Shown here: positions 5,389 through 49,914 of the stretch, one piece after another | Layout: each line of letters begins with the position of its first letter | Numbering within the stretch: the stretch's first letter is position 1 | IMG/VR virus record: IMGVR_UViG_3300035520_000451 | Reading direction: 5' to 3' (one strand) | Length of the DNA stretch: 64,000 bases | Source: a virus | Taxonomy: Duplodnaviria > Heunggongvirae > Uroviricota > Caudoviricetes | The notes under the pieces: generated by a model | The model's database searches: none | Seen by the model: only the letters and a program-made list of their open reading frames with translations | Told to the model about the DNA's origin: nothing | Position numbers and translations under genes: made by a program

Positions 5389-6333
5389 TTAATGAATCCA
5401 GTGATCACTTATAGTTTTATCAGCTCCTAAAAATACATTCGGACAAAAAGGTTTTCCTCCTGCAATCATACATTTGACTAATATATCTCCAATATATTCT
5501 GCCATATCTTCTGGGCACTCTAGATTAAATTCATCATGTGCTACTACACATATTTTGACTACATTAAGTAAATTATTATCTTTTATCCAATTAAATAGTT
5601 TAATTGCAGATAATTTGAAAGCGCAGGCCCCACGATTTTGTATTCTGTAGTTTATGGATTGCTTTTCACAGTCTGATTTCCGACTAAGATAATGACTAAC
5701 ATTTCTAACAGTGTCACAATGTGGAGATTCTATTTTCATTTCTTGATAATATTGCCAATATTCAGGATCTTTACATTTCTCATGCATTTGTATAATCCAA
5801 TCTGCATCATAAATATGGGCTCTATGCTTTAGTATAGAGTTCATTAAGATATATCCTTTTTCCATTACATTTTGCCTACAATACTCTTGATATTGAGCTA
5901 CTCCTGGAAAACCCCTCATAAAATCAGAATATATCTTTTCTGCAGCTCGCAACGGAATACCTTTATTATTAGCTATAGTTTTAGCATCCCCGCCATAATT
6001 AACTGAAAACTCAATTCCTTTTGCATCCTGTCTTTGATCGTGATATAGTTCATTTATATCTTCTATTTTAGTGTCTCTGGGAATTATATTAGGATAAGAC
6101 ATATAGGCAACCAAACTATGAACATCTCCACATCCAGATTCAAATAATTCTACCATAGCTTTATCTTTAGAAACAGATGCAATAATTCTACTTTCTTGAC
6201 TTTGGTAATCACAAGAAATCCATTTATTACCTTTTTCTGAAGTAAAACATGCTCTAGTTATTTTATCATGTGGTAAATTCTGTTGGTTTAATTTATACTG
6301 ACCACCACCACTAGATACTCGCAACATTTCCAT
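5389..6333 (-). CDS. family-A DNA polymerase, C-terminal part (polymerase motifs A, B, C)
   Basis: Motif A DYQSQESRIIA (DYSQIELR-like), motif B RQDAKGIEFSVNYGG (RxxxKxxxFGxxYG), motif C VVAHDEF (HDE); start MEMLRVSS aligns to Pol I RLSSTDPNLQNIP. Confidence 0.8.
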   Translation of the reverse strand: MEMLRVSSGGGQYKLNQQNLPHDKITRACFTSEKGNKWISCDYQSQESRIIASVSKDKAMVELFESGCGDVHSLVAYMSYPNIIPRDTKIEDINELYHDQRQDAKGIEFSVNYGGDAKTIANNKGIPLRAAEKIYSDFMRGFPGVAQYQEYCRQNVMEKGYILMNSILKHRAHIYDADWIIQMHEKCKDPEYWQYYQEMKIESPHCDTVRNVSHYLSRKSDCEKQSINYRIQNRGACAFKLSAIKLFNWIKDNNLLNVVKICVVAHDEFNLECPEDMAEYIGDILVKCMIAGGKPFCPNVFLGADKTISDHWIH

Positions 6334-11274: not shown

Positions 11275-12003
11275 CTAACGCTCTATTTCTTTCATACTGT
11301 CCCATTCTTTAATTAAATTAAAATCAAGATCAAATTGTAAAATTGCGCAACCTCCATAATTATTTTTGCCATATTTCCAATGTTTTTCTCCAGAATGAGT
11401 TTCTGATAAAGTTTTTAGAGTTTTTTCTGAATGCTTATAGCCAACAATTCCATCACCTCCATTAGTTAAATTATAACCAAATTTATGATCAGAAGTTTTA
11501 TATTTATTAATATAATATATTTCTTTTTCGTTAACAATATCATTCAATAATTTTTTGTTCTCCGGCGTATTATCTAGAACGTCTGTTTGAAACAATATTA
11601 CTTTATCAAATTTATCCCAGCCATACTTTCTTATAGCTTTGTAAAAATAATTATTACCTTTTTCTGCTTTATTTCTATGCTCACTGAAACGTTCCTCATA
11701 ATTAGATTTTACTGTTTCTCCTATATATAATTTATTATTAATAGTATTTATAAAACAGTAAACTGTTCCTATAATTTTTTCTTTTAATACAATTATGGGA
11801 GATTCAATAATTAACATATCTGGTAAAGAATTTGTAACAATATTATTTAAATCACTTTTACTATTTCTCCCTTTTAAAAATCTAGCACAGGTAGGACATC
11901 CATATTTTCCATCTAAAAATGTTCTTGGGGTAGTTCTAAACTCACCATGATCTTTACAAACAATCGTAACATAATTTTTTTCCTGATTTGAAAAAGGCTC
12001 CAC
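11275..12003 (-). CDS. GIY-YIG homing endonuclease with N-terminal zinc finger and NUMOD3-like repeat
   Basis: GTVYCFIN...KLYIGET (GIY-YIG), RFSEHR, C-x2-C...CPTC zinc finger, HSEKTLKTLSETHSG NUMOD3-like. Confidence 0.7.
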   Translation of the reverse strand: MEPFSNQEKNYVTIVCKDHGEFRTTPRTFLDGKYGCPTCARFLKGRNSKSDLNNIVTNSLPDMLIIESPIIVLKEKIIGTVYCFINTINNKLYIGETVKSNYEERFSEHRNKAEKGNNYFYKAIRKYGWDKFDKVILFQTDVLDNTPENKKLLNDIVNEKEIYYINKYKTSDHKFGYNLTNGGDGIVGYKHSEKTLKTLSETHSGEKHWKYGKNNYGGCAILQFDLDFNLIKEWDSMKEIER

Positions 12004-12168: not shown

Positions 12169-13371
12169 TTAGTTTAAATCCCAACGAAATGCTATAAATT
12201 TAGGTTGCTGAGGAATACCGTATGGGGATATTTCAAAATATTTACAATCTCCTAATTGATTTTTATATTTTTCTTCAAAATTATCTACATATTCTTGTTT
12301 AATTTCTCTAGATCCCATTGGAGAAGCTTTAAAAGTTTTACCATCTTTCATTTCACAAATAAATACCATATCTTCAGAACCTCTAAGACCAAGTTCATAT
12401 CCTATAACTTTATAAGTATCATCAAAATAGCATTTTATTTTGATCCAATCATTTCCTCTGGCTCCTGGTTTATAAGTAGAAGAAGCTAATCGTATAACTA
12501 AGCCCTCCCATCCTTCTGCTACATAGGAATCATGTAATTTTTTCATATTATCATATCCTGTAATTTCTACTTGTGGTAAAAATTGGATATGCAGTATGTC
12601 CTCAGAATAATGCCTATATGGGTCAAATTCAGACAGCTGGAGCTCTTTTGACCACTCTTGCATAAGTTTGTACCTTTCAGTAAAAGGCTTCTCCAGATCG
12701 ACTATATCGTACCAATAAAACTCTAAATCTTTACCATCATTTACAGTAGATTGGCTTCTACATATACCACTAATTTTATTAAGAGTGTATCCCATTTTAA
12801 AGATTTCTCCATCTAAAATAGCTTCTGGATGATTTTTAAAGAATTCTTCTACCAAAGGATGCTGAATAATATGAATAATAGCTATATTATAATTTACAGC
12901 ACCTCTGGAAGCTGTTTGAATTTTACCATCTTTATAATAAATTAAACATCTAACTCCATTTACTTTTCGCGACCCATAATAGTCTTTATCAAAAGTTTTG
13001 GCAGACACTTTATCTGCTTGCTTGGCTAGCATAGGCTTAATTATACCATCTCCTCTAGTTTTAACATCTCCATATATTTCATTTAATTCTTCATCAGTAT
13101 ACTCGTTAGGATGTTTTTCTACTTCTTTATATCCTTTATCCAAGAATTTCTTTACTTCAGAATTAAATTGTAAAGTATATTGTTCTTTCCAATTTCTTTT
13201 CTGTTTAGTTTGAGAAACTACAATGGCTGGGGAAAGAGTATTCTTTCCCCGAACCTGACCATAGCTTCTTTGGATAACATATCCAGTATCTTCCCATTCC
13301 TCACTACATTCTACTACCGCATATCTGAATTTACCAGTAGAAGATTTTCCTAAAAGATATTTCTTAAGCAT
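12169..13371 (-). CDS. ATP-dependent polynucleotide ligase (DNA ligase-like nucleotidyltransferase)
   Basis: Motif I KVNGVR (KxDG/KxNG), motif III AILDGEIF, motif IV EGLVIR, motif V DWIKIK. Confidence 0.65.
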   Translation of the reverse strand: MLKKYLLGKSSTGKFRYAVVECSEEWEDTGYVIQRSYGQVRGKNTLSPAIVVSQTKQKRNWKEQYTLQFNSEVKKFLDKGYKEVEKHPNEYTDEELNEIYGDVKTRGDGIIKPMLAKQADKVSAKTFDKDYYGSRKVNGVRCLIYYKDGKIQTASRGAVNYNIAIIHIIQHPLVEEFFKNHPEAILDGEIFKMGYTLNKISGICRSQSTVNDGKDLEFYWYDIVDLEKPFTERYKLMQEWSKELQLSEFDPYRHYSEDILHIQFLPQVEITGYDNMKKLHDSYVAEGWEGLVIRLASSTYKPGARGNDWIKIKCYFDDTYKVIGYELGLRGSEDMVFICEMKDGKTFKASPMGSREIKQEYVDNFEEKYKNQLGDCKYFEISPYGIPQQPKFIAFRWDLN

Positions 13372-13922: not shown

Positions 13923-14385
13923 CTAGAGAATCTACTTGATTCCAATTAATTTGTTCTACTTTATTTAGTACAAATTGTGCTATTCTTTCACCGTCTTCAA
14001 TCCAAGCAGTTTCAGTACCTAGATTTATTAATATAACACCTATTTCGCTACGATAATCGCTGTCCACAGTCCCCACGCAGTTAGCACACGTGAGTCCTTC
14101 TTTTAAAGATAGCCCAGAACGAGGTCTTACTTGTATTTCATAACCTTCGGGAATAGCAGTAAATAAACCAGTTGGAATTAATGCTCTAGAACCAGGTTCT
14201 AGTCTTAACATAGTCATTTTATGCGCATCTCCTTTAAAAATTATCTCTCCCTCCCCATAAAGCTTAATAGGATTTTGAGGAGTTATTCTACTAAAATCAG
14301 CACGTACATCCATACCAGCTGATTGAGAAGTTTCATACTTAGGAAGATTATTATTTGAAATATTAATTACATTTACTGTTGTCAT
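13876..14385 (-). CDS. dut: dUTP diphosphatase (dUTPase)
   Basis: dUTPase motifs AGMDVRA, IPTGL, RPRSGLSLK, GVILINLG. Confidence 0.8.
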   Translation of the reverse strand: MTTVNVINISNNNLPKYETSQSAGMDVRADFSRITPQNPIKLYGEGEIIFKGDAHKMTMLRLEPGSRALIPTGLFTAIPEGYEIQVRPRSGLSLKEGLTCANCVGTVDSDYRSEIGVILINLGTETAWIEDGERIAQFVLNKVEQINWNQVDSLDETSRKGGFGHTGTK

Positions 14386-14387
14386 AA

Positions 14388-14798
14388 TTATAAAATACTT
14401 TTAGGAATAAATTTATTATTATCAATAACTAAATACTGTTTGTTTTCGAGACAATCACACGCATAAATTAATTGTCCATTATCTGCTACCATGCTTGTAA
14501 TTTCTTCTACAGGACTATGACCAATTACTTGATCATATCCATCTATATTACATGATATTAACTTAGTGGGTCGAATCCAAGTAATAGATTGTGTTACTGA
14601 TTCTCCACAGAAATCATAGCGATTATCAGGAATAAATCCAAATATTTCTGAAGGGGGTAATTTATTAACATCCTCTAGCTTAACTTTAGCACTTTGTTCT
14701 AACCAAACCTTAGAAACTCCAGCATGTGAAAAGATTATATTATTTTCAATATGTATCCATTGAGTATCTTCTAGAAATCTATCCTTCATAGCAGTCAT
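14388..14798 (-). CDS. calcineurin-like metallophosphoesterase, C-terminal part (interrupted gene)
   Basis: FSHAG and VIGHSPVE (GHxx) motifs; continues the N-terminal part at 15889..16113 across an HE-containing insertion. Confidence 0.55.
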   Translation of the reverse strand: MTAMKDRFLEDTQWIHIENNIIFSHAGVSKVWLEQSAKVKLEDVNKLPPSEIFGFIPDNRYDFCGESVTQSITWIRPTKLISCNIDGYDQVIGHSPVEEITSMVADNGQLIYACDCLENKQYLVIDNNKFIPKSIL

Positions 14799-14916
14799 AT
14801 GTTTAGCTACATATGAATCATATCCAGAACATTCACCCCAACTATATCCAAGTTCTTGATTATCCTTTTTGTTTAGATTAATTCGTTAAATTAATCCCAA
14901 TTTTAACGCTGCAACT

Positions 14917-15825
14917 TCATTTTGTTGCAGAACTGACTATATCTTCATCCTTCTCTTTTACAGAGTTAGGAGCCTCGCATTTCGAATCACTTGATTCTAC
15001 TCCCATTTCAGGGATAGTCGATGAACCTTCAACAGATATATTATCTGAAGCTTGGCTGCTGATTATCATCTCAGACGTTCCAGCAATTAACGAGGTGTCC
15101 TCTAAGGATTTCTCCTTAGACGCACAAAATATTTGTTCAAATTTTAATTTTTTTTCATTACACCAAATAGGTGATTTAGAATACATATATTCATACAAAT
15201 TTCGCATTTGTTTTCTACCAGAATATTCCATTGTGCAAACTTTATCACACGTAGGAGTGTTAGGATTCTTCGCTTTACTAAAATTTAATTTAGTTTTTTT
15301 AGAAACAATACCCTGTTGAATTAAAAAATCCTGTAAAGAACTTATAAATTCAGAATTGCCAGTAAAAGTAAATTTTACATTATGAACTATTCTATTTCTA
15401 TATTCTCCAGGCTTCTTTTCATTTTTTACAGTCATTACTTTACGTTTACCGTTCCAAACACAACCATCCCCGTCAAAATATCCTAAAATAAAAGAAGACA
15501 TTAATTCAATAGGAATAAAAGTTGGAAAAGTAAGAGTTAAAGATTTATTGCGGATTGCTCCTAGTTTTATCAAATCGGAACATAATTTTACACTATTAAA
15601 AGTAAGTCTATAAATATTGGGACTGTAACTCTTTATAGGATATTCGGAATTTAATGCTTTATTAATTTTTTCTAATATATCAATTCTTTCACCTAATTGA
15701 TCTAATTCTAGACAATCTTCTCGATTATACCCATCTGCATATATAAAGCCTAATATATATGCTTGTTCATGAGTTTTTAACTCATTAAAATAATTTTCAT
15801 TAAAATAGTATTTTCTAGTACTCAT
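14917..15825 (-). CDS. LAGLIDADG homing endonuclease
   Basis: ILGFIYADGY and ILGYFDGDGCV motifs. Confidence 0.8.
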   Translation of the reverse strand: MSTRKYYFNENYFNELKTHEQAYILGFIYADGYNREDCLELDQLGERIDILEKINKALNSEYPIKSYSPNIYRLTFNSVKLCSDLIKLGAIRNKSLTLTFPTFIPIELMSSFILGYFDGDGCVWNGKRKVMTVKNEKKPGEYRNRIVHNVKFTFTGNSEFISSLQDFLIQQGIVSKKTKLNFSKAKNPNTPTCDKVCTMEYSGRKQMRNLYEYMYSKSPIWCNEKKLKFEQIFCASKEKSLEDTSLIAGTSEMIISSQASDNISVEGSSTIPEMGVESSDSKCEAPNSVKEKDEDIVSSATK

Positions 15826-15888
15826 ATATATTTGAATTTTATTATTACAAATATAATATGATTACCTCAGATTGCCAATTAAAAATTT

Positions 15889-16113
15889 TTAAAATTTGTT
15901 AATTTTATGGTTTCCTCGTAGAAGTATTACTTTGTCAGGATTATTTTCTTTATATGTTAGGATCTCTTTTAAATTTTCTATTTGTGTTTCTGATGAAATA
16001 CCATAATGGGTAGTTACATAATCTCCAAGAAATATTACCTTATCTGGATGCTCTATTTCTAGAATTTTCTTCCATATAGTTCTGCCGTGTATGTCTCCTA
16101 AAACTACTATCAT
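15889..16113 (-). CDS. calcineurin-like metallophosphoesterase, N-terminal part (lambda-PPase-like motifs I-III)
   Basis: VVLGDIHGR (GDxHG), FLGDYV (GDxxD), LLRGNHK (GNH[DE]); ORF stops 4 codons after GNH. Confidence 0.6.
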   Translation of the reverse strand: MIVVLGDIHGRTIWKKILEIEHPDKVIFLGDYVTTHYGISSETQIENLKEILTYKENNPDKVILLRGNHKINKF

Positions 16114-16367
16114 TGATTTAAATAATTAATTAAAGATTTAATTACATCTTCCCCAGTTTCTGAATAAAACGCCTTAATGGGTTTATCATTCTCAAATATT
16201 GCTACAAATGGAGTTAATCTAGCTCCAAAACTACCTTTTAATTTCCAAGCTTCCTTCTTGCCATATCTAGTTTGATCATCTATAAAATGAAAGAAAGGAG
16301 ATACTTTAAAAGTACCGTCTATTCTCTTTATTGTAGATTCATCATTATAAACAATAAATATATCCAT
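16110..16367 (-). CDS. hypothetical small protein (paralog of 22111..22398)
   Basis: KLKGSFGARLTPFVAIFENDKPIKAFYSE versus KLKSEYGARLNPFILVMKDGNLNKLFYKE; no CxxC. Confidence 0.45.
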   Translation of the reverse strand: MDIFIVYNDESTIKRIDGTFKVSPFFHFIDDQTRYGKKEAWKLKGSFGARLTPFVAIFENDKPIKAFYSETGEDVIKSLINYLNQ

Positions 16368-17051: not shown

Positions 17052-18065
17052 TTATAATTCTTTTATATGTTTAACTCGTTGTTCGACCTCCTGTTGCTTA
17101 CCAACGTTAAATGACGTCTTGTAGTCTCCGGTAAGGTAGCCTGTTACACGACGTAATCGTTTGATATTTTTACTACCGCACATAGGACAAGTATCATTCA
17201 ATTCATCAATATAACCACAGTCTTGACAAGAATCATTTGGTACATTAATGGCAAAGTATGGAATATCATGATCCATTGCATAATTAACAATCTCTTCAAT
17301 AGCTTCTGGATTATGCTTAGTAGAAGCAGGTAATTCAACATAAGTTATACAACCTGCACTACTGAAACCAGTAAGCTGTGATTCAATTTCAATTTTCTCA
17401 AATGGAGTGCATTCATGCCATACAGGTACGTGCATACTATTAGTAAAGAACTCACGTTCTGTAATTCCTGGAACTTCGCCAAATTGCTTCTTAAATTTCT
17501 GCATTGCTGTATAACACAGATTTTCAGCAGGAGTATAGTAAACACCAAAATTAAGTTTATAAGCTTCTTTGAATTCACTACATCTCTTCTTAAAGAGAGC
17601 TTCTAATTCTTTAGCTTTATCCATAATTTCTGAATCAGTGTGGTCTTTACCGAAAATAATTCTCAAAGCTTCTGATAATCCTAATTGACCAATAGCTAAA
17701 GTACCATGTTTTAATGCTGAACGGATACCTTCTTCAGGTTTATATCCATACATTACATTATTTTGATACATAAACTTAGCGGATGCAGCATCTTGACTAC
17801 ATATCCAATCAAATCGTTCAATTAGCATATCTTTTGCTTCATGAATCTTAGTATCCAACAATTCAATAAATTTATTCCATACTAAATCCTTGATATTTAC
17901 ATCTGCATTATCCATATTAGATATAGCTTGCAGTTTAGAATTCATTGCAAGTGTAGGAAGTATGATTGTAACAGGACAGATATTACCTCTACCATCTTTA
18001 AGTTGACCAAAACCATTAATATCCCAGCCATTCGCAGTTCTACACATTTTACCCAATGTCACCAT
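17052..18065 (-). CDS. nrdD: anaerobic ribonucleotide reductase NrdD, exon 2 (glycyl-radical domain)
   Basis: C-terminal Zn ribbon CQDCGYIDELNDTCPMCG and glycyl radical motif RVTGYL; MCRTANG aligns to E. coli NrdD MGCRSFLG. Confidence 0.85.
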   Translation of the reverse strand: MVTLGKMCRTANGWDINGFGQLKDGRGNICPVTIILPTLAMNSKLQAISNMDNADVNIKDLVWNKFIELLDTKIHEAKDMLIERFDWICSQDAASAKFMYQNNVMYGYKPEEGIRSALKHGTLAIGQLGLSEALRIIFGKDHTDSEIMDKAKELEALFKKRCSEFKEAYKLNFGVYYTPAENLCYTAMQKFKKQFGEVPGITEREFFTNSMHVPVWHECTPFEKIEIESQLTGFSSAGCITYVELPASTKHNPEAIEEIVNYAMDHDIPYFAINVPNDSCQDCGYIDELNDTCPMCGSKNIKRLRRVTGYLTGDYKTSFNVGKQQEVEQRVKHIKEL

Positions 18066-18331
18066 CGGAACTGACTATATGTTCATTCCTTGTTTCACAA
18101 CAAAGAGTTGTCTCTTGTTTGGAATCGGTGCTTATCTCCGATCCTACAGGGCTACACTCATCACCCTTAGTCGATACACATTCTGTACTAATATAACTAT
18201 AAGTACATTAGCACGGTCTCATCTTATTATTTACACTGCAATTATATAATAAGACCTAACCGTTAGCTTCTACGCTTAAATAGAAACACCCCTTAAGCAG
18301 GGTTAAAGAGATTTTAAATGGGCTGCAGTTT
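18066..18331 (-). other. ORF-less group-I-like intron interrupting nrdD (approximate bounds)
   Basis: 266-nt GC-richer, stem-rich segment with no ORF between two halves of one NrdD reading frame. Confidence 0.55.
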
Positions 18332-19549
18332 TCACTTACCCATTGTACTGAAATAAGTGCGAGGATCGTTTATATCATACCCTTCATTACCAGACCAATC
18401 TACATTGGCATAATTAGGGTATAACCTAAGACTCGTAACCTTAGTAGCTTCTTGGAATATATCATAATTCGGATCTCCAGGTTTTCGATTAACACCTTTC
18501 ATTAATTGAACGATACAGCACGGAAAAATCGGAGTGCTATGATGGCTACCAATACCATTCTTACTTACTTCAAGTAAAGCTAGACTAATAAGACGTCCTT
18601 CAGGTTGTGTACAAGTACCATAATTAATAGAAGTAAAAGGTAATTGATTACCACTTCTACTTTGTAGAGTATTTAAATTATGATACATACCTTCAACAGC
18701 TTGATGAATTTCTCGTTTAGTCATATCCAAAGCATATTCATAAGAATTAGGATGTTCTTTATACAAACTATCTTCTATAGACAAATCTGTTTGATCGTAT
18801 TTTTCATTACGAATGTGATCAATATACTTCAATCCAGTTCTATAATGCTTATTAAAAGATAGTCTTACATAGGGAACCATAGTCCAATCTAAATGAGTTG
18901 CAGATACACCACCAAATTGTTGTAAACTTTGTACTTGGAATATTACAGCTAATAATTGAAATGCTGTATTAATACTCTTAGCAGGTCTAACATCAGTTTG
19001 CTTTAGCTTAAACCCGTTAGCAAGTAAGTCATCTACTGGTATGCTCAAACAGTTGTGCATCCCTACAGCGTAAGAATCCAAATCATGAATGTATATTTCA
19101 TTATTTTCATGATTATGCTTAGCCATTTCAGACATACAATAATTAAGAGCATAATCTTTAGTTACAACTCTACCTGCTTCGCCAATACGTCCACCAAATG
19201 AATGCTCATCAATATTAGCATTTTGATTTTTTACATTAGAAGCTTCAAGTTTAGATTTAATACCTTTAATGAGTTTATCTTTTTCAGCACGGATCATCTT
19301 ACGTTCTTCTCTATAAAGAATATAAGCTTTAGCTACATCTGAATATCCATAATCCATTAAAAGTTCTTCAACTTGATCTTGTATATCTTCAATACTGATA
19401 TTATCCCAAATCTGGACTTCATCTACAATTTCCTCAATAGTTTTAGGGATACTTTCGTACCCACATTCTTTAAATGCTGCTGAAACTGCATTTACAATTT
19501 TACTTCTATTAAACTCAGCGGGCTCACCGTTTCTTTTTGTTACTTTCAT
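18332..19549 (-). CDS. nrdD: anaerobic ribonucleotide reductase NrdD, exon 1 (ATP-cone plus barrel)
   Basis: N-terminal ATP cone (VTKRNGEPAEFNRSKI); C-terminus ends FSTMGK, continuing into exon 2. Confidence 0.85.
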   Translation of the reverse strand: MKVTKRNGEPAEFNRSKIVNAVSAAFKECGYESIPKTIEEIVDEVQIWDNISIEDIQDQVEELLMDYGYSDVAKAYILYREERKMIRAEKDKLIKGIKSKLEASNVKNQNANIDEHSFGGRIGEAGRVVTKDYALNYCMSEMAKHNHENNEIYIHDLDSYAVGMHNCLSIPVDDLLANGFKLKQTDVRPAKSINTAFQLLAVIFQVQSLQQFGGVSATHLDWTMVPYVRLSFNKHYRTGLKYIDHIRNEKYDQTDLSIEDSLYKEHPNSYEYALDMTKREIHQAVEGMYHNLNTLQSRSGNQLPFTSINYGTCTQPEGRLISLALLEVSKNGIGSHHSTPIFPCCIVQLMKGVNRKPGDPNYDIFQEATKVTSLRLYPNYANVDWSGNEGYDINDPRTYFSTMGK

Positions 19550-27472: not shown

Positions 27473-27763
27473 ATCTTCTACAAAATCTCGACCAGGATAT
27501 TCATAAAAAACTCCTCTTTCTTCTAGAATATCCCATACAGGGCCACTATTATCCTTAAAGAAATATTCAAAAGCAAAATATAATACATCACCACTTACTT
27601 CTCTAATTATAAAATTTGTGAAATCTTCGAAATTATCAGGAATTTCTCCCCCAACATTTATTTGAAATATAATCTAATTGTAAATCAGATAAACTATCAA
27701 CATAATTGAGTACCTTATCATAATCCTCGCAATATCTACTAATTAATTCTTCTTTATCCATTT

Positions 27764-28000
27764 TTAAATATTTTCAAAAGTTCCACTAATTAAATTATCA
27801 TTAATTATCAAATCATAAGAAAGTCCATAAGAATTTCTAGAGAAATTATAATTTGAATAATCAGATGCTCCAAATAAACTTAACACATTACGATAAGTAA
27901 ATTTCTTGCAAGAATTCATATTATTAGAATGCAAATCACCTTTAACAATATGAATATTATCACCTGTAATCCCTCTAGAATCTAGCCATTCATATAACAA
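27764..28000 (-). CDS. metallophosphoesterase, 3' exon (interrupted gene)
   Basis: KGDLHS (GDxH-type motif) continuing the phosphoesterase that stops at 29353. Confidence 0.5.
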   Translation of the reverse strand: MLYEWLDSRGITGDNIHIVKGDLHSNNMNSCKKFTYRNVLSLFGASDYSNYNFSRNSYGLSYDLIINDNLISGTFENI

Positions 28001-29352
28001 TACCTTAGACTTTTCATCTAAGTTGAGAGGAAGTCCCTTTTTACAGAACTGGTCGTCTTTCAGTTATGTTATCGCCAAGTTTTTTATCTTGACTTCTATA
28101 GTTTCCTATTCACTATAGCTCAGCGTACCTTTTCATCCACTTATTTCAGTTGGGATGGAAACCACTCTTGGGACTATTTTATTCTTTTACAAGTTTCAAG
28201 TCCTACGCGTTACGGTGTTACAGACTTTTTAATTTCTGTAATTACCTCGGGATTAACATCTCAGTATTCCCCGATTTTGGTTTCTAATTATCTATATGAT
28301 TCCTCATATAGACGGCAATATTCTAAAAATTTTTCATATTTTCTCGATAAATATATTGTAGAATTTTTATAAAGTTTGCACATACTTTCATAGGCGTCCT
28401 TTCCAGTTAAATTAAAATATTTAATAATACTTTGTTGTTCTGGGTGATTAATATGTAAAGTAGGTGTTTTAGAACAAATAAATTTAATAATAGAATTTAA
28501 TATTTCATCTGTTCCTAAGACAGAAACTTCTGGGCGAGTATGCTCTTTATCATTCCAAGTTAAACAGCCGTCCCCATCCCAATATCCTCTAATAAAATGA
28601 TATATCAATTCTTTAGATTTAAATAATTCAATTCTAGGAAATTTCAAAGTTAATGATTTCTTAGGAGTACAGCCATTAACATTTAAAATATTCCATAAAT
28701 GTTTAGAATATACACTTAATCTACACCTAATTTCATCTTTATATAAAGATTGCTTATATTCTAAAAATTTAGCAAACTTTTCAAGATGTTCCAAGTCTTT
28801 GATAGATAAAGATAATTCAATTTGATATTGAGTTTTAACTTCTTTTCTTAAAGGTGAAGAACTAATAGTTCCATCAGCAAATAAAAATCCTAGCCAATAC
28901 GCTTTTTCTTCAGTATCAATTGAATCAAATATATATTCATTAAAATTCGCTTTTCCTAAAATTTTTATATCAGGATAATAAGTAGAAATATAGTCAGATA
29001 GTTCATTAGCACTAATTTTAAATTCTGACGCTAATTCTTTAATATTTGTATTAGGAAAACCTCCCAATTCAACATATTTATCAGCTGCATATTTATATTT
29101 AGCACAGGAAACTATATTCTTTCCTTTTTCTATTTTATAAAATCCTAATTCCTTAAATCTATTTATAATTATTTGTTCTGTATCTTTATAATTTCTAGTT
29201 ACTTCTGAAAGAGTTTTTTCACCTCTTAAAAGTAAGTTAATAAGATCATCAAGATTTAAATTTTTATAAAATTTCATATTTCTATATATTAATTACTATT
29301 TCCATATAAATATACGAAATATGTTTTATAAAACAAAATTAATTTTTAGATT
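28001..29352 (-). mobile_element. group-I-like intron carrying a LAGLIDADG homing endonuclease gene
   Basis: GC-richer, stem-rich 290-nt non-coding core (28001-28287) plus HE ORF, located between two halves of one phosphoesterase frame. Confidence 0.55.
28288..29277 (-). CDS. LAGLIDADG homing endonuclease
   Basis: YWLGFLFADGTI and IRGYWDGDGCL motifs. Confidence 0.8.
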   Translation of the reverse strand: MKFYKNLNLDDLINLLLRGEKTLSEVTRNYKDTEQIIINRFKELGFYKIEKGKNIVSCAKYKYAADKYVELGGFPNTNIKELASEFKISANELSDYISTYYPDIKILGKANFNEYIFDSIDTEEKAYWLGFLFADGTISSSPLRKEVKTQYQIELSLSIKDLEHLEKFAKFLEYKQSLYKDEIRCRLSVYSKHLWNILNVNGCTPKKSLTLKFPRIELFKSKELIYHFIRGYWDGDGCLTWNDKEHTRPEVSVLGTDEILNSIIKFICSKTPTLHINHPEQQSIIKYFNLTGKDAYESMCKLYKNSTIYLSRKYEKFLEYCRLYEESYR

Positions 29353-30657
29353 TTAATTACCATGGGCACAGACAAAGGTATGACCACTTTGTTTAAATAC
29401 TCCGTAGAATTCTTCCCACATAGTAGTTTTAGCATCTGGAAATTTAGCATTTATACTTGCCATTAATGCCTTATTGCACATATACTCAAAATTTCCTCCA
29501 TGATTTCCGCATGGAACTGAATATATATTTATATTAGAACCTATTTTGGAAACATACAAAGATTCCACAAACCACATAATAAGTTTAATAAAACTATTAG
29601 CTTGCTCACGAGGATCCATATTTTCTGGCATATCGTGATCTAATCTGGCAGTTTTGCCAAAGAATCCAGGACAATCAACATTATCTCCTAAAAGTACTAC
29701 ATTTATGGTATCAAATAATGATTCAAAACATTCTAATTTATGCAAGATAGTAACTAGACGACGTTTAGCTTCATTATACCCATAATTTATATTTTCTTGA
29801 TACAATGCTCCACTATTTATTTTAGCACCTAGATGAATATCAGATAAATATAAATTTAAGTTCAATCCCGTAGAGGGAGAACTCTCTGTAAAATGTAAAG
29901 GCTCTAAATCTTTAGGAATTGAAATTGAAAATTCTGTATATTTTTCTATTTTCTTTTTCAGTTCTATATTTTCTTGAGCATACTTTTTAAGAAGTTTCTC
30001 CGTATTTCTAATATTGTCTTCTTCAGCTTTTCTAAGGAAACTGTTTTCCTTTTCACGAAGCTGTATTTCTCTTAGCTCCTCCTCGGATTTTTCTTCAAAC
30101 ATATGGGGAGCGAAAGGAGAGGAAGCTTTAGTAATATTAAATGCACGAAGAATTCTCTTAAAGTCTATTAGAGATAATTCTACAAAATATCTAGAAATAA
30201 CTCTTTGAGTTAAAGAATCTCCATAATATGAATACAATCTATAAATAGTATCCATTTCTTCTCTGGACAATCTTCCACACAATGGAGTTTTGTTTTTTCT
30301 AAATATTTGATACCTATAATTCTGAATATGTCCATTCTCATCTCTATCACAAGATGTCTCAGCTACTGCATCTGTTTCAATTTCACAATTAGTAATTGTC
30401 TGTGTTTGTTTAGTCACCTGACTATAAAGTGTCAAAATATCTGAAACTATTTTAGATTCTTCTTCATGTAATTCTCTAATTTTAGATATTGTTTGCACTA
30501 TTGATTTATAAGACATATCAGAATGTGCATCACAATATTGTTTTAGAGTTTTACCACTTTTCTTTACACTCTTTAAAATACCCAGATATTTCTTTAATGT
30601 TGTTTGTTTCATATATATACAAAAATAGGGTGATACCCGAAGATACCACCCTGTCAA
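29353..30657 (-). CDS. metallophosphoesterase (Mre11/SbcD-like fold) with N-terminal extension, 5' exon
   Basis: YLSDIHLG (DxH), LLGDNVD (GDxxD), CGNHGGN (GNH), VCAHGN; probable real start at MKQTTLKKYLG. Confidence 0.55.
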   Translation of the reverse strand: MTGWYLRVSPYFCIYMKQTTLKKYLGILKSVKKSGKTLKQYCDAHSDMSYKSIVQTISKIRELHEEESKIVSDILTLYSQVTKQTQTITNCEIETDAVAETSCDRDENGHIQNYRYQIFRKNKTPLCGRLSREEMDTIYRLYSYYGDSLTQRVISRYFVELSLIDFKRILRAFNITKASSPFAPHMFEEKSEEELREIQLREKENSFLRKAEEDNIRNTEKLLKKYAQENIELKKKIEKYTEFSISIPKDLEPLHFTESSPSTGLNLNLYLSDIHLGAKINSGALYQENINYGYNEAKRRLVTILHKLECFESLFDTINVVLLGDNVDCPGFFGKTARLDHDMPENMDPREQANSFIKLIMWFVESLYVSKIGSNINIYSVPCGNHGGNFEYMCNKALMASINAKFPDAKTTMWEEFYGVFKQSGHTFVCAHGN

Positions 30658-30699
30658 GCAATTATCAATTTTAAATTAAATCACTAATTTTATTTTAAA

Positions 30700-31257
30700 T
30701 TAGTCTCTTTCAATACCAAATACAATGTATGTGCCCATTTGTGAACTCTTTGAAGGAGTATAATCTACTGTAAATGCAGTAGGTTCACCGTCAACAACCT
30801 GCTTAGTATAAGTACAAACCAAATTACCCTTATACGGATTCTCTGCATTTGTATAAAGAGCTTTAGCAAGTTCCTTAGCCTTAGCCTTGGTTTCATTAGT
30901 TTCAGCGAGAACAGCACCAGTAGCTGCATCCTTAATTTGATAAACAGTCTTATAATGACGAGTACCCTTCTCATTCTTTACATCATTAATACGATAAGGA
31001 CGCTCACGAGTGTCAGCTACAGCTGACTCTACTACAATATAAAAACCAACATTAGCACAATTCTTAGACTTATTTGCAAGATAATCAAGCATAAACTGCT
31101 TCTTATCAGACTCAGTAATACCGTTTACTTGCTTCTTACGCCATAGCTTATATGCCGGAGTTGCATTACCCATAATATCAAAAGGTGCCTTTGCCAATGC
31201 CTCTTCCTTTGTTGCACCATTTACTTCAAGCTTCTTAAAATTCAAAATTTTGTCCAT
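30700..31257 (-). CDS. hypothetical protein (GC-richer codon usage, likely abundant)
   Basis: 185-aa ORF with markedly higher GC than its neighbours. Confidence 0.5.
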   Translation of the reverse strand: MDKILNFKKLEVNGATKEEALAKAPFDIMGNATPAYKLWRKKQVNGITESDKKQFMLDYLANKSKNCANVGFYIVVESAVADTRERPYRINDVKNEKGTRHYKTVYQIKDAATGAVLAETNETKAKAKELAKALYTNAENPYKGNLVCTYTKQVVDGEPTAFTVDYTPSKSSQMGTYIVFGIERD

Positions 31258-36966: not shown

Positions 36967-37893
36967 TTAGATTGTATCAACAATATAATTATTACATGAA
37001 AACGATCCGTTATATTTCTTTAACCACTGATTAACAGCAGATTTAGATATACATAAATACTCAGCAACTTCTTTTTGTTCTATTAATTGAATTACTTCCT
37101 CTCCATTTTTAGTAATCTTATATTTAAATGGAGATACATACTCGGAAATATTTATTTTATCAGTTAATGCCCAAAAGAACCTTTTATATTCAGTTTTATT
37201 TTTTATGGCTTTATCCAACGCGTGGTGGCTATTTTTATTAAGGAATTGAATTACACACTTTTTACTTTCAAATTCTCTTAATAAATTTCCATATAAATCA
37301 AACTGATATATTTTAATTCCAATAGATTCTTTTTTATAAGAATCTATTTTTTCTTCTTCTGTTTTATATTTCCATATAAAACCACAAGCTGATTTAGAAT
37401 TACCATTTAATACACTATCTATATTAGTTATTGATCCGTTTAATTCAGCTGCTGCTTCAGTAATAGAATCAAAATCTTTATATTTAGTGCCATCTAAATT
37501 AAATGCTGTTATCGGTTTTTTATGGGCATTTCCTGCTCTTGTAAGAGAATCAATACTTCTTTTTTCTTTAGTTATTACACCTTTTCCTCCTTTGTCAATA
37601 TTCATTAATTTATGTCCAAGGTTTTTATAATAACTAATCCAGTATTGCTCTCTAGCTTCCCAAGCTTCTTCTGAGCATTCGTCTATTTTCTCTATAATAA
37701 CTGAGCCCCCATTTTTATATACAGAGTATATCCATTTATGAACAGGTAATCCTCTTTTTTCTGGATGGTTAGCACAGTATTTATGTTGAGAAAATCTTCT
37801 ATCTAATTTTTGAGTAGTTACTCCTACATAACGAATTTCGTCTGGCGATATGTCCGATTTAAGAACATAAAATGAATAATTATTTTGTTGCAT
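36967..37893 (-). CDS. free-standing GIY-YIG homing endonuclease (Seg-like)
   Basis: FYVLKS...IRYVGVT (GIY-YIG), RFSQH, EQYWISYY; C-terminal NUMOD/IENR-like repeats (ITAFNLDGTKYKDFDSITEAA, CGFIWKY). Confidence 0.75.
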   Translation of the reverse strand: MQQNNYSFYVLKSDISPDEIRYVGVTTQKLDRRFSQHKYCANHPEKRGLPVHKWIYSVYKNGGSVIIEKIDECSEEAWEAREQYWISYYKNLGHKLMNIDKGGKGVITKEKRSIDSLTRAGNAHKKPITAFNLDGTKYKDFDSITEAAAELNGSITNIDSVLNGNSKSACGFIWKYKTEEEKIDSYKKESIGIKIYQFDLYGNLLREFESKKCVIQFLNKNSHHALDKAIKNKTEYKRFFWALTDKINISEYVSPFKYKITKNGEEVIQLIEQKEVAEYLCISKSAVNQWLKKYNGSFSCNNYIVDTI

Positions 37894-38753: not shown

Positions 38754-38999
38754 TTATCGTATAAGTTCTTTATCTTATACTTCTATATATTACTATATAG
38801 TTCAGACTATCTCTTTAACTTACAAATGTAAGCAGTGCCCCGCTTTCGTGGAAGATTTTATAGCTACAGCTCTACCTGTTTAGCATCACTTCTAGTCGTT
38901 AGGCGTTTTCCTTTATTTCTAAAGGATTTAGCACGGGATTGTCCTATTTAGGAGTTTCCCCGTTTAACGGAGTTTTAGGTGCGTCTAGCCCTAATTTGG
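38754..38999 (-). other. ORF-less group-I-like intron in the dnaB-like helicase gene (approximate bounds)
   Basis: About 245-nt GC-richer, hairpin-rich non-coding segment (e.g. GGTGCGTCTAGCCCTAATTTGGCGCACC) between two in-frame halves of one helicase. Confidence 0.55.
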
Positions 39000-39770
39000 C
39001 GCACCAGTATCTTTGGTATCATCAATTCTTAAGTTATTTAATCCTTCTTTTCTTCTATCCATAGAAGTAGAATTTCGATTTGCTTGCATAATTACAAGCG
39101 GACTAATTTTACATATATTTCTTAATGTTACCAAATAGGAGGATATTAAATCCATTTCTTCTTTTAGAGTACGTCCATTAGACCTTCTTACTAAACTTAA
39201 ATGGTCTATAACTACTAAATGAGTAAGTTCTTCATTACTAGGATGATATATTTTTCTACCATCTGTTTCTTCAAACTTGCCATCTTTTTCTAGTTGAGCC
39301 ATTAAGATTGTATATAAACTACTAGCATTTAATGCTTTATCATAAATAACTAAAATCTTTTCAACCTTCTGTAACCAAGGTAAACATTCTTGAGTTATTT
39401 TATAATAATCATCAGATAATTTATAATTACGTTTTCTAGAAAGAAGTTCTCCAGTAGACAACTCTATTCCATAAGTTTCAAAGATATACATACTTAATAT
39501 CTTAGCATAGATCATTTCGGCGCTCATCTCTAATGAAAAATAACTAACTTTAAAATTACCATCATCAAGATGTTCCATTAATGGTCTATATACATAAGAA
39601 TATAAAGCAAGTGAACTCTTACCACTACCAGTAGGACTAAATACTAAAGTATAAATTCCTCTAGATACTCCATCTATTATCTCTTCTAATTTTGGGAGAC
39701 CCATTGAGTATCCCCACTGCTTACCTAATCTACCTACTTCAATCTGATGAAGTAATGATTCTGCAATCAT
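38991..39770 (-). CDS. DnaB-like replicative helicase, exon 1 (RecA-like core: H1, H1a, H2)
   Basis: GLPKLEEIIDGVSRGIYTLVFSPTGSGKSS (DnaB loader-facing motif plus Walker A), Walker B VVIDHLSLV, ending DTKDTGA. Confidence 0.65.
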   Translation of the reverse strand: MIAESLLHQIEVGRLGKQWGYSMGLPKLEEIIDGVSRGIYTLVFSPTGSGKSSLALYSYVYRPLMEHLDDGNFKVSYFSLEMSAEMIYAKILSMYIFETYGIELSTGELLSRKRNYKLSDDYYKITQECLPWLQKVEKILVIYDKALNASSLYTILMAQLEKDGKFEETDGRKIYHPSNEELTHLVVIDHLSLVRRSNGRTLKEEMDLISSYLVTLRNICKISPLVIMQANRNSTSMDRRKEGLNNLRIDDTKDTGAPN

Positions 39771-47408: not shown

Positions 47409-47494
47409 TAGCGAAAGCGGGACTCGAACCCGCAAGATCATAATGATCGGGGGATTTTAAGTCCCCTATGTTTACCAACTTTCATCATTTCGCC
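47409..47494 (-). tRNA. tRNA-Leu (anticodon TAA), type II with long variable arm
   Basis: Hand-folded: acceptor GGCGAAA/TTTCGCT (1-72 G-U), D loop with GG, anticodon stem GGGGA/TCCCC, loop CTTAAAA, variable hairpin GATCATTATGATC, T arm GCGGGTTCGAGTCCCGC. Confidence 0.7.
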
Positions 47495-47538
47495 CCTTTC
47501 GTATTGCAATACTACGAAAAATTTATTTATTCCCCAAG

Positions 47539-47940
47539 TTAAAAAGTGTTAAAGATATATACTAATCTCTTTAAGTTTGGCTCAAAAATTTGATAAAAAT
47601 CTTCTCTAATTCTAGCAGTAGGAAATTTCAACCACGCATAATTAAACAAAGGATCGTATCTATCAATTTTGCATACTTCACAAGCATGATTTTTAGTAAT
47701 AGCACATGTTAAAATATCAAATTTATCATACTTTGACCAAATTTCTTTCCATGCTTGATAGATACCTAGAATTTCTTTAAAAAGTCTAATACTTTTTTCG
47801 TCGGTTGCAGAAATTGAAACTTTACTAATATCTCTTGGAAATTCCTGTTTTAAATCAGTGATAATATATTGGGGATTTCCATTTACTTCGTTATATTCTA
47901 ATTGAAGATTTTCTCCTTTAATCGTATATTCTTTATTCAT
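47539..47940 (-). CDS. hypothetical protein
   Basis: 133-aa ORF. Confidence 0.4.
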   Translation of the reverse strand: MNKEYTIKGENLQLEYNEVNGNPQYIITDLKQEFPRDISKVSISATDEKSIRLFKEILGIYQAWKEIWSKYDKFDILTCAITKNHACEVCKIDRYDPLFNYAWLKFPTARIREDFYQIFEPNLKRLVYIFNTF

Positions 47941-47985
47941 ATTTTAAACAAAAATGGAGGAACTATAAAAGTCCCTCCAGTATAA

Positions 47986-49914
47986 TTATTTAGTACTTCC
48001 AAACACTTTCTTAACAGTATCTGCAATAGGCAAATTACCAAGAATATCCATTGCAGGACTGAGATTCTTAGCCATATTAGACATAAAGTTACCAGCAGTA
48101 TTTTCACCACCATAAACAGTAACTTGACCAAGCTGAATATGCTCATATATCTTAGCTTGTGCTGTAGCAATATCTGCTAATTGATCTACTGTTTTATAAT
48201 TTACAACAAGTTCAGGAGTCAATCCAGCTTCAATCATTTGCTTAACAGCAAGCGCAGGAGCCATCTCAATAGCTTGTACCTTATCTGCCTCAGCCATTAA
48301 AGAAGCTCTTTTACCCTCTGCTTCTGCTAAAAGTTTCTTTTTAGTACCCTCTGCTTCTGCTTCTAACTTAGTTTGAGTAGCATTTGCTTCAGCATAAGCT
48401 TTAGTTCGAATAGCTTCTGCTTCTGCCTGTGCTTCTAGAATAGCTTTTTGTTTAATCGCTTCAGCTTCAATACGAATTTTCTCCTTCTCAGTTTCAGCTG
48501 GAACAATAACTTCAGCATTCAATTTAGCTTGTTCTGCTAAAGCTTTAGCTTCGTTTACTTCTATTTGTTTCTCTTGTTCAATTTTAGCAATTGACATTTG
48601 AGCCTCTACTTTAGAAGTACCAGCAACTTTTATTGCTTCTGCTTCTGCTTTGGCTGCTTCTCCTTTAGCTTGTGCTACTTCAATAGTTGCGCGTTGCTCT
48701 GCTACTCCAGCTTTCTTATTAGCTTCTGCTGCTTTCTGTCTCTTAGTAGATTCATACTCTGCAACTTTAGCTTGCTGGTCATTAATTGCTTTTTGAGTTT
48801 CAGCTTCTTTTTCTTGCTGTGCTTTAGCAATTCTAATTTGTTTCTGAGCTTCTGCTTCTGCTTTTGCAGATTCTGCTTCTGAATTAGACTTGGCTACTGA
48901 CGCAATAGCTTCTGCTTTTCTAGCTGCTTTAGCTGATTCAGCTTCAGATTCTGCTTTAGCAACATTAGCTTCTTTAATCGCATCTGCTTCTGCTTGTGCA
49001 GTTATTGCTTTAGTTTTAGCATTAGCTACATTAGCAGCCTGTTCAGCTTGTTGTTCTGCGACTCCAGTAGTCTTAATCTTTTCAGCTTCTGCCAATTTAA
49101 TTTGCTTATCCTGATTAATTTCAGCTACTCTTACTTCCTGCTCTTGCTGAGTCTGAGCTACTTGAGTAGCACGCTCTTTTTCAGCACTAGCAACAGCAAT
49201 TTCCCTTTCCTTGTTAGTTTCGGCAATTTGAATTTGACCCTTCTTTTCTTCTTCTGCAATATCTGCTTCTGCTTGAGCTTGAGCTTTAGTGGCTGCTTTC
49301 TTACCTAAATTCTTAATATAATTTGCATCATCAGAAATATCTGCATTATTAATATTAATAATAGTGAAACCTACTTTATTAATTTCAGTTTCAATGTTCT
49401 CTTTTGCTTTACCTAAGAATTTACCGCGATCAGCATTAATTTCTTCAATGGTCATAGTAGCCATAAGACTACGCATTTCACCAATAAGAATATCCTTAAT
49501 TTGATTAGCAATTTCTTCTAATTCAGCATTTAAGAAACGACTAGCAGCATTTTGCATAAGCTCCTGAGTAGTACCAATACCAGTAGTTAATGTTACAGGA
49601 ATAGTTACTTTAATCATTTGGCTAGATACTCCAACTACAGAAGTTTGAATCTGTATAGGAGTTAAAGACATTTTTTGCCAATCTTGAATAATCGGAAATA
49701 CAAATGTACCTCCGCCATGAATAATTTTAGAAGGCAAAACAACTGTTTCGCTCTTGCCAGTTTCTGGATTAATCTGGGTTTTCTTTCCAGCTTTACCAAA
49801 TACTACAAGAATTTCATCACTTGCGCATCTACGATAACGCGACATTAGACCAATTACGGTCAACACTACAAGAACTACAAGAATTCCTGCAACAATAAAA
49901 CTAGTTTGTAACAT
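47986..49914 (-). CDS. SPFH/band-7 flotillin-like membrane protein with long Ala/Glu/Lys-rich coiled coil
   Basis: N-terminal TM, SPFH-like core, then about 300 aa of AKAEAEA-type repeats (flotillin YqiK/FloT-like architecture). Confidence 0.65.
   Translation of the reverse strand: MLQTSFIVAGILVVLVVLTVIGLMSRYRRCASDEILVVFGKAGKKTQINPETGKSETVVLPSKIIHGGGTFVFPIIQDWQKMSLTPIQIQTSVVGVSSQMIKVTIPVTLTTGIGTTQELMQNAASRFLNAELEEIANQIKDILIGEMRSLMATMTIEEINADRGKFLGKAKENIETEINKVGFTIININNADISDDANYIKNLGKKAATKAQAQAEADIAEEEKKGQIQIAETNKEREIAVASAEKERATQVAQTQQEQEVRVAEINQDKQIKLAEAEKIKTTGVAEQQAEQAANVANAKTKAITAQAEADAIKEANVAKAESEAESAKAARKAEAIASVAKSNSEAESAKAEAEAQKQIRIAKAQQEKEAETQKAINDQQAKVAEYESTKRQKAAEANKKAGVAEQRATIEVAQAKGEAAKAEAEAIKVAGTSKVEAQMSIAKIEQEKQIEVNEAKALAEQAKLNAEVIVPAETEKEKIRIEAEAIKQKAILEAQAEAEAIRTKAYAEANATQTKLEAEAEGTKKKLLAEAEGKRASLMAEADKVQAIEMAPALAVKQMIEAGLTPELVVNYKTVDQLADIATAQAKIYEHIQLGQVTVYGGENTAGNFMSNMAKNLSPAMDILGNLPIADTVKKVFGSTK

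Follow-up and report, generated by a model that had tools for sequence, protein, structure and literature searches.

Probable group I introns encoding LAGLIDADG endonucleases at catalytic-motif codons of two metallophosphoesterase genes in a phage contig

Homing elements prefer conserved sites, usually inside one gene family, and the introns of phage T4, which are among the closest described parallels to the elements reported here, carry GIY-YIG or HNH endonucleases in their P6 or P9 loops. We have analyzed IMG/VR virus record IMGVR_UViG_3300035520_000451 (Duplodnaviria; Heunggongvirae; Uroviricota; Caudoviricetes), a 64,000-nucleotide (nt) stretch of DNA referred to below as the window, in which a metallophosphoesterase gene (MPE1) and a second phosphoesterase gene (gene 2) are each interrupted by an insert bearing a LAGLIDADG endonuclease gene. 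We hold with high confidence that both inserts are group I introns. The T4 td, nrdB, and nrdD (sunY) introns, of subgroup IA2, are self-splicing group IA introns with P7.1 and P7.2 helices that interrupt conserved codons, move by means of an endonuclease that they encode, and have a patchy distribution in related phages (PMC2988022, PMC3984707). The elements described here are alike in these respects, with splicing being predicted, but their endonucleases are of the LAGLIDADG family, lie in the P1 loop, and overlap the guide sequence (and, in intron 1, the whole ribozyme core), and their hosts are metallophosphoesterase genes. The T4 hosts are nucleotide-metabolism genes, and the window likewise has a probable nrdD intron without an open reading frame (ORF).

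The endonucleases of phage group I introns are for the most part of the GIY-YIG, HNH, PD-(D/E)xK, or EDxHD type (PMC3984707). A 2025 survey of the Bastillevirinae reported one LAGLIDADG-encoding group I intron, in a DNA polymerase gene, together with ribozyme elements that overlap nuclease genes and partial Rfam matches that are broken by long ORF loops (PMC11878797). Those introns are similar to ours in being phage group I introns with loop-encoded endonucleases, but phosphoesterases are absent from the text of that paper (PMC11878797), whereas the LAGLIDADG/IA introns described here form an entire lineage that is associated with the phosphoesterase GNH motif, in contigs of ~90 to 190 kb, several of which are labelled human gut. 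Bacterial and organellar LAGLIDADG group I introns, such as that of the Thermotoga 23S rRNA, also hold the ORF inside the intron at a highly conserved site but occur mostly in rRNA or organellar genes (PMC3984707). ATPases that are not orthologous repeatedly have inteins at the "classic" position in the P-loop (PMC5050341, PMC4760082), again a case of a homing-endonuclease element at one short motif, and the lineage of intron 2 is found in at least two types of Walker A ATPase. The difference is that inteins splice at the protein level, whereas these are RNA introns and the motif of intron 1 is the calcineurin-like GNH. The target DNA of homing endonucleases often codes for residues that are critical for function (PMC3984707), a tendency with statistical support from introns and inteins (PMC2814812). 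Our literature search, the coverage of which was incomplete, turned up no account of a group I intron in a phosphoesterase gene of a phage.

The window has a G+C (GC) content of 30%, and all genes in the regions examined, like the features placed below, are on its minus strand. In the ORF list, MPE1 and its insert appear as three ORFs, located where the original prediction had put them: an N-terminal part of 74 amino acids (aa) ending LLRGNHKINKF and a stop codon (15889..16113), LAGLIDADG ORF 1 of 302 aa (14917..15825), and a C-terminal part of 136 aa with an in-frame ATG at 14798 (14388..14798). Based on the ORF list and a gap-free alignment with relatives, exon 1 consists of 69 codons (15907..16113) that encode GDIHG, GDYVTTH, and GNH, and it ends in ...GGAAACCAT, with the codon for His69 last. 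Exon 2, delimited by the alignment and by the point at which tblastn matches split, consists of 158 codons plus the stop codon (14388..14864), encodes SHAG and GHSP, and starts with GATAATCAA (Asp70) at 14864; upstream of the ATG, the frame of the C-terminal piece reads ...NLNKK DNQELGYSWGECSGYDSYVAKH M.... The motifs GDxHG and GNH that had been predicted for the N-terminal part, and the remaining histidine motifs predicted for the C-terminal part, are thus present, but the second motif is not a literal GDxxD, five codons (KINKF) rather than four precede the stop codon, exon 2 starts at 14864 and not at the ATG, and the interruption, given as 1,090 nt, is an intron of 1,042 nt (15906..14865).

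The joined MPE1 protein has 227 aa (...GNH + DNQELGY...), and the interruption, which is in phase 0, separates His69 from Asp70 in the GNHD sequence of motif III. With the joined protein as the query, tblastn matches split exactly into residues 1 to 69 and 70 to 227 on L001 to L003. A collection of 5.8 billion proteins contains 1,338 relatives of MPE1, and among the best 120 of these, 119 are full length (55 to 62% identity, 96 to 100% coverage). In an alignment of 17 sequences, the junction is free of gaps, the sequence around it (LLRGNH/D.Q.LGY.WAECSGY, where, as below, a slash outside parentheses marks the interruption) is nearly invariant, and D7, H9, G30, D31, G67, N68, H69, H116, G184, and H185 are invariant. 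The joined protein is matched by Pfam Metallophos (PF00149; 4.3e-13, 50.6 bits versus a cut-off of 21.5) and has the ordered motifs DxH, GDxx, GNH(D/E), H, and GH; PP1-like matches in the PDB are weak (7e-5, profile search). If the transcript is spliced, the ligated junction would be ...GGAAACCAU + GAUAAUCAA, and an intron-less version of this junction in DNA would read CTACGAGGAAACCAT/GATAATCAAGAAC. Based on its sequence, we conclude that MPE1 is a calcineurin-like metallophosphoesterase. The locus occurs in identical form in five independent metagenome contigs, and a megablast search of GenBank phages for near-identical DNA gave no match to it. Samples in which the phage is present are JGI 3300043107, 3300043025, and 3300043109 and SRR11794512 and SRR11794561.

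The MPE1 intron (intron 1; 14865..15906) begins with AAAATTAAC and ends with ...AAACAAAAAG (...AAAAAG, with a terminal G), and homologous introns begin directly after CAT in all relatives. In an Rfam scan restricted to positions 14300..16200, RF00028 matched along the full model (1 to 253) at 14914..15144 with 67 bits (gathering threshold of 50; E value of 2.4e-16). This region, the ribozyme core, coincides with the 3' quarter of LAGLIDADG ORF 1. The original prediction had recognized the LAGLIDADG ORF but saw only short AT-rich flanks around it and so missed the ribozyme, which is 263 nt long and 38% GC, compared with 30% for the window, and overlaps the last ~70 codons of the ORF. The family structure was derived from 14 distinct aligned sequences with RNAalifold, with P7 added by hand; P4 of intron 2 and P5 and P6 of intron 1, as first entered by hand, were mis-registered, and the RNAalifold structures were used instead. 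RNAalifold gave P2, P3, P4, P5, P6, P7.1, and P9 for the families of both introns; the intron 1 family additionally has P7.2, P8, and P9.2, and the intron 2 family has P9.1. The helix order in intron 1 is P2, P3, P4-P6, P7, P7.1, P7.2, P3', P8, P7', P9, and P9.2, in which P3 pairs 15098..15091 with 14977..14971 and P7 lies within 15020..15011 and 14940..14929. Across the family, 61 pairs are 98.4% canonical and 30 of the 61 show compensatory changes (both sides changed among the 14 sequences), whereas controls in which the partners were shifted by 1 or 2 columns are only 30 to 38% canonical. P7 is invariant in the family and is hence uninformative for covariation. P7.1 and P7.2 are formed by CCC with GGG and by GAAUC with GAUUC, and the latter pairing covaries with GGACC and GGUCC in L009.

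The internal guide sequence AUUUUGUG (15123..15130), which lies ~780 nt downstream of the 5' splice site, pairs in the order 15130..15123 with CAU/AAAAU (15909..15902) as helix P1, placing a U.G pair at the splice site. Compensatory changes in P1 are seen in L008 (CAU/AAAUUU with AAAUUUGUG), L022 (CAU/AGAAU with AUUCUGUG), and L024 (CAU/UAA with UUAGUG). Relatives of the endonuclease that are 59 to 64% identical, in IMG/VR contigs, carry homologous RNA, and L056 has a 316-nt derivative in which the P1 loop is closed and only a remnant of the ORF is left. Based on the Rfam match, the covariation, and the alignment, intron 1 is a group I intron and not a bare endonuclease gene, and the presence of P7.1 and P7.2 between P7 and P3' makes it IA-like. 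Two other classes of element were considered: an intein is excluded by the stop codons that follow both 5' junctions, and a group II intron is unlikely, since the topology is that of group I and E-value scans of both regions with Rfam returned no group II family.

The P1 loop accommodates ORF 1, the final ~70 codons of which coincide with the ribozyme sequence from P1' through P9. Its two LAGLIDADG motifs, LGFIYADGY and LGYFDGDGC, both keep the acidic residue, and it is matched by Pfam LAGLIDADG_3 (28.5 bits versus a cut-off of 22.5; 1.9e-6) and by phrog_4645 (3.5e-40). The homologous ORF in L008 and L013 ends just past P2 (in L008, at a point equivalent to about residue 232 of ORF 1), and the tail therefore looks dispensable, which indicates that the conserved C-terminal peptide SSTIPEMGVESSDSKC reflects a constraint on the RNA and not on the protein. 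The endonuclease gene is decayed in several relatives, with a deletion in L010, a frameshift in L011, only fragments in L022 and L024, and a remnant in L056. In the leader (15826..15906), a block conserved in the family precedes the endonuclease start (GGAAATCTGAGGAAACC in L007 and GGCAATCTGAGGTAATC in the window) and may act in expression of the endonuclease, either as a ribosome-binding site or in regulation.

Gene 2 is also interrupted, and its two parts are present as ORFs of 434 aa (29353..30657) and 78 aa (27764..28000). Exon 1 (29359..30612) has 418 codons that encode a helical/beta N-terminal region followed by SDIHLG, GDNVD, GNHG, and CAHG, and it ends with ...GCCCATGGT (CATGGT at 29359); the most likely start is the ATG at 30612 rather than the TTG at 30657, as homologues begin MKQ(S/T)T. 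Exon 2, placed by alignment with homologues, has 98 codons plus the stop codon (27764..28060), encodes KGDLHS, and starts with AAAGACGAC (Lys; AAAGAC) at 28060. The joined protein is colinear with uninterrupted homologues at 75 to 77% identity in which the sequence reads VCAHGKDDQFCKKGLPLNL; one of these, P0122, reads ...VCAHGKDDQFCKKGLPLNLDDKSKV..., and the predicted ligated junction in the window is GCCCAUGGU-AAAGACGAC. More than 800 proteins are related to gene 2, many of them uninterrupted, and an end-to-end alignment was also obtained with one ORF of MT835492. Among the close homologues, P0191, P0200, and P0237 (loci L016 and L020) have the intron, and P0122 and others lack it.

Pfam gave no match to the gene 2 protein of the window, and searches of the PDB by sequence and by profile gave only noise. 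In contrast, when the AlphaFold model of P0122 (77% identical to the window protein; predicted local distance difference test score of 74.7) was compared with the PDB by Foldseek, the top 50 matches were all metallophosphoesterases, including GpdQ, PolD DP1, LpxH, SbcD, Mre11, and Rv0805 (E values of 3e-6 to ~1e-3). SbcD and Mre11 do not outrank GpdQ, DP1, or LpxH among these matches, and gene 2 also matches PHROG families with the label "exonuclease," among them phrog_284 (1.6e-10). The invariant residues D258, H260, G309-D310-N311-x-D313, G369-N370-H371, and H417-G418-K419 belong to the motifs DxH, GDNxD, GNH, HGK, and GDLH. From the model and these residues, we conclude that gene 2 has a metallophosphoesterase fold. 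The original prediction was therefore right that a second phosphoesterase is split by a LAGLIDADG-containing insert, that both genes are split within catalytic motifs, and that the halves of each join into a single protein, as the alignments with uninterrupted homologues of MPE1 and gene 2 demonstrate. It placed the second cut after VCAHGN and the gene at 27764 to 30657, whereas the cut follows VCAHG, exon 2 extends from 28060 rather than 28000, and exon 1 likely begins at 30612 rather than 30657.

The gene 2 intron (intron 2) is 1,298 nt long (28061..29358), as delimited by homologue alignment. It begins with AATTAAAATC, ends with ...GATAACATAACTG (...ACUG, with a terminal G), is preceded by a U, and lies between the Gly and Lys codons of CAHGK, so that the Asn codon is the first codon of the intron. 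A 3' splice site near 28010 and a P1 in the 81-nt leader are both rejected: the alignment with MT835492 puts the boundary at 28061/28060, and the guide is inside the end of the ORF. P1 is formed by AUGGU/AAU with AUUGCCGU at 28319..28312 and has a U.G pair at the splice site. The topology runs from P1 to P9.1 with a P3/P7 pseudoknot, in the order P3-[P4-P6]-P7-P7.1-P3'-P8-P7'-P9; P3 pairs 28284..28278 with 28164..28158, and P7 lies within 28208..28200 and 28128..28121. In a family of nine sequences (L016, L020, L017, and others), 65 pairs are 98.3% canonical and 32 of the 65 show compensatory changes, compared with 29 to 43% canonical pairs in shifted controls. P7.1 is GGACU with AGUCC and covaries with GAAAU and AUUUC and with GAGAU and AUCUC. 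Intron 2 is thus, by topology and covariation, a group I intron that is not recognized by Rfam. The copy in L016 has an extra insertion of ~136 nt in the P7.1 loop (~5455..5592), and its ribozyme is otherwise conserved.

The two introns have the same architecture: an 81-nt leader (11 to 14% GC), a P1 loop that contains the endonuclease gene, and a ribozyme of 263 nt (35 to 38% GC). LAGLIDADG ORF 2 (329 aa; 28288..29277) is matched by Pfam LAGLIDADG_1 and LAGLIDADG_3 and by phrog_4645 (3.4e-47); the guide sequence (28319..28312) and P2 fall within its final ~10 codons. ORF 2 is 39% identical to ORF 1 over 135 aa (E value of 2e-16), and judged by this similarity, the two ORFs are paralogues.

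We determined the distribution of the intron 1 lineage by scanning IMG/VR and metagenome contigs with a 28-nt stretch of the intron 1 core, which matched 9 IMG/VR contigs and 34 metagenome contigs. Every copy of the lineage that could be read, in each of the 9 viral contigs and in 29 of the metagenome contigs, immediately follows a phosphoesterase (G/S)NH; the other 5 matches are to different introns that have only the P7-P7.1 region in common with this one. (Those introns, in L053, L063, and L072 and in L057 and L067, interrupt a P-type ATPase at TGDG/(V)ND and a topoisomerase II/GyrB-like Toprim domain at ..MADADYD/G; the TGDG and DADYD sites are both acidic metal-binding motifs.) A looser P7 pattern, CGACTATCCC...ATAGTCAGTTCT, proved not to be specific to the lineage, as it is also found in nrdD, ClpB-like, and RecA-like introns, and it was not used for counts.

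The hosts of this lineage are of several kinds. Besides MPE1, they include type A (SDLHFGH...LGDFAF...LILGNH/D), type B (YHDPYGEY...CLLGNH/DLSYF; 27% identical to the window protein), proteins of the gene 2 type (SVPCGNH/GGNFEY and SIGESNH/GGDYEW), and three further types (IGIRGNH/DNPSIF, FIAGNH/, and SVKEGNH/DGITGY). Types A and B pass the Pfam Metallophos threshold, and type A, the group formed by the window protein and type B, and the gene 2 type have no mutual BLASTP similarity (E > 0.9). The occupied sites have only (GG)NAAYCAT/G in common. The ribozyme of L022, in a host of the gene 2 type, and that of L007, in a host of type A, are 96.4% identical over 275 nt. The GNH site of gene 2 in the window (GGAAATCAT/GGAGG; 29495..29508) is empty and reads CCATGCGGAAATCAT/GGAGGAAATTTTG, and the equivalent site in L022, L044, L064, L024, and L066 holds a ribozyme of the intron 1 family.

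The intron 2 lineage is found at HG/K of gene 2 orthologues (L016, L020, L080, and L086), at Walker A GAAGCG/KS (L079, L085, and L027), at ASSGIG/KSS of a DnaB-like helicase (L083 and L077), and at SRGG/E of an ATP-dependent DNA ligase (L017 to L019). The 5' exon ends in GGT wherever the junction can be read, and the 3' exon usually starts with AAR. This set of sites indicates that the lineage tracks Gly/Lys-type junctions and not metal-binding motifs. The homing-site preference for conserved metal-binding motifs that had been proposed from the two window insertions is consequently borne out for intron 1, by its position after (G/S)NH, but not for intron 2, with its Walker A and ligase sites. 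The general rule appears to be codons of conserved catalytic motifs, with one short motif for each lineage, rather than metal-binding motifs as such.

Taken together, these findings make it very probable that the interruption of MPE1 is a mobile group IA intron that homes by means of its LAGLIDADG endonuclease and whose splicing restores the gene. In the pre-mRNA, the last three bases of the exon and the first five of the intron (CAU/AAAAU) would pair with the guide AUUUUGUG as P1, with the LAGLIDADG gene within the P1 loop, and the 263 nt from the guide to the terminal G would fold into P2 to P9.2, including the P3/P7 pseudoknot. Self-splicing initiated by guanosine would then join GGAAACCAU to GAUAAUCAA, restoring GNHD and a 227-aa PP1/NinI-like phosphoesterase. 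The double-motif LAGLIDADG enzyme is predicted to cleave the codons for G-N-H-(D/G) in alleles that lack the intron, and a co-infecting genome that has the intron would then serve as the template for repair, so that the intron is copied in. In gene 2, the paralogous element, with the same architecture and located between the Gly and Lys of CAHGK, would restore CAHGK by self-splicing.

The spread between families calls for a further proposal, to which we give somewhat less than an even chance: that the distribution is due to jumps between families that are directed by the motif. The homing site would be ~10 nt that selection keeps constant because they encode a catalytic motif, a refinement that we hold equally tentatively. 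The sites may be GGNAAYCAT/G, encoding G-N-H-(D/G), for lineage 1 and ..GGT/AAR, encoding G/K, for lineage 2, and the elements may move between genes that share the motif only. In this way, lineage 1 may have reached at least three dissimilar phosphoesterase families, and lineage 2 may have reached a phosphoesterase, Walker A ATPases, and a DNA ligase. For this cross-family spread, we favor recognition by the endonuclease at the DNA level, because P1 pairs with only three exon bases, too few to pick out GNH among CAU sites.

Several observations weigh against parts of this account. RF00028 gave no match to intron 2 at an E value of ≤1 in 27500..30800 or of ≤10 in 27990..28300, nor any at ≤10 to L086, a short relative with only a remnant of the ORF. 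Since there is no Rfam match at any threshold, the assignment of intron 2 to group I depends wholly on its topology and covariation. ORF 1 in the window reads through the entire ribozyme, so that translation could compete with folding, and by eye, the P10 pairing is weak or undetected. The intron is present in every contig that has this exact MPE1, and the closest intron-less MPE1 among the best 120 of the 1,338 matches is only 62% identical; this particular copy is therefore only putatively mobile at present. Between families, the exon flanks share nothing beyond ~9 to 10 nt, leaving little homology for double-strand-break repair. This last fact would suit a different route between families, in which the intron reverse splices precisely into foreign mRNAs and is then reverse transcribed and recombined into DNA. 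We consider that route unlikely. A guide that pairs with only the three exon bases CAU cannot select GNH among CAU sites, the additional conserved bases (GGNAAY upstream and G downstream) are outside P1, and no reverse transcriptase was noticed in the window, although no systematic search for one was made. An intron that had been inserted after GNH in the common ancestor of these families and was then inherited vertically and lost many times would explain why the same codon position is occupied across families. We give this hardly any credence, as ribozymes that are 96.4% identical lie in hosts that cannot be aligned by BLASTP and the great majority of members in every family have no intron (119 full-length proteins among the best 120 of the 1,338 MPE1 matches).

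Two other explanations dispense with splicing. It is quite improbable that the introns are dead and that MPE1, gene 2, or both are pseudogenes. An endonuclease ORF that overlaps the whole ribozyme would be compatible with loss of splicing, and accessory phosphoesterases of phages may be dispensable, but the exons of both genes are without frameshifts and keep all the invariant motif residues, the helices of the window copies are all canonical in the family alignments, and the identical locus is found in five independent metagenome contigs. A gene that is permanently split and never spliced, with halves that are translated separately and then assemble, as in some endonuclease-split genes of T4-like phages, is less probable still, even though both halves are intact ORFs, the C-terminal part has the in-frame ATG at 14798, and intron 2 has no Rfam match. 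Starting at that ATG would remove 22 conserved residues (DNQELGYSWGECSGY...), including the invariant L74, Y76, W78, and C81, and the true start of exon 2 at 14864 has no start codon. Moreover, in both genes the junctions are flanked by a covariation-supported ribozyme with the correct U and G at the splice sites, and relatives that have lost the ORF (L056 and L086) keep the ribozyme. We therefore retain the reading of both inserts as group I introns, in which splicing, the activity and specificity of the endonucleases, and homing are predicted from sequence.

Other parts of the window hold additional elements of related kinds. MPE1 is preceded by a glutaredoxin-like ORF and NrdG and followed by a dUTPase. 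NrdD is split into ORFs at 18332..19549 and 17052..18065, which match Pfam NRDD positions 2 to 249 and 264 to 562. The insert between them (18045..18337, ~293 nt) has no ORF, runs from ..YFSTMG/ to /CRT, gives a weak Rfam group I match (21 bits; E value of 0.003), and resembles nrdD introns at ..MG/CR.. in other phage contigs (L032 to L041); it would probably bring the number of group I introns in the window to three or four. Another Rfam group I match (70 bits) is at 38783..39040, in or after the ORF at 38991..39770, which encodes a DnaB-like helicase, near ..KDTG/AAQDSE... The 3' tail of this helicase intron, ..GATAACATTATG, resembles that of the intron 2 family, and no splice sites were found for it that are both in frame and obey the U...G rule. 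Two GIY-YIG/NUMOD ORFs, one adjoining the ATP-dependent DNA ligase gene (11275..12003; ligase at 12169..13371) and the other downstream of the helicase intron (36967..37893), are probably free-standing homing endonucleases; counting the two LAGLIDADG ORFs, genes for homing endonucleases number at least four in the 64-kb window. Five tRNA genes are clustered at 47409..56113: Leu-TAA, Gln-TTG, Met-CAT, and Glu-TTC, as called by ARAGORN, and a fifth gene (53342..53410) that was found only by the Rfam E-value scan.

The outcome of Rfam cmscan depends strongly on the length of the sequence submitted. Both scans of the whole 64 kb missed the 67-bit match to intron 1 because of their filters, and the 70-bit match to the helicase intron was the only intron in the gathering scan, while the E-value scan had none. 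It is likely that routine scans of whole genomes report too few of the introns in AT-rich phage DNA. For annotation, the consequence is that gene callers report five ORFs for what are two enzymes and two introns, that Rfam misses intron 2 wholly, and that intron 1 is detected only from a short submitted sequence.

The elements themselves are of a known kind, and it is the occurrence of a single lineage at a single motif in multiple families that is the notable part. One ribozyme lineage lies at the same three codons of phosphoesterases that cannot be aligned with one another, and the ribozymes in two of these hosts share 96% identity. This provides a concrete case in which endonuclease specificity centered on the DNA of a motif could permit jumps between genes, the RNA-intron counterpart of the P-loop inteins. 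For this new group of LAGLIDADG enzymes, a family whose members serve as scaffolds for genome engineering, the occupied sites also offer a set of target variants that arose in nature. If jumping directed by the motif proves true, these large phages would be a natural system for studying how endonucleases gain access to new genes.

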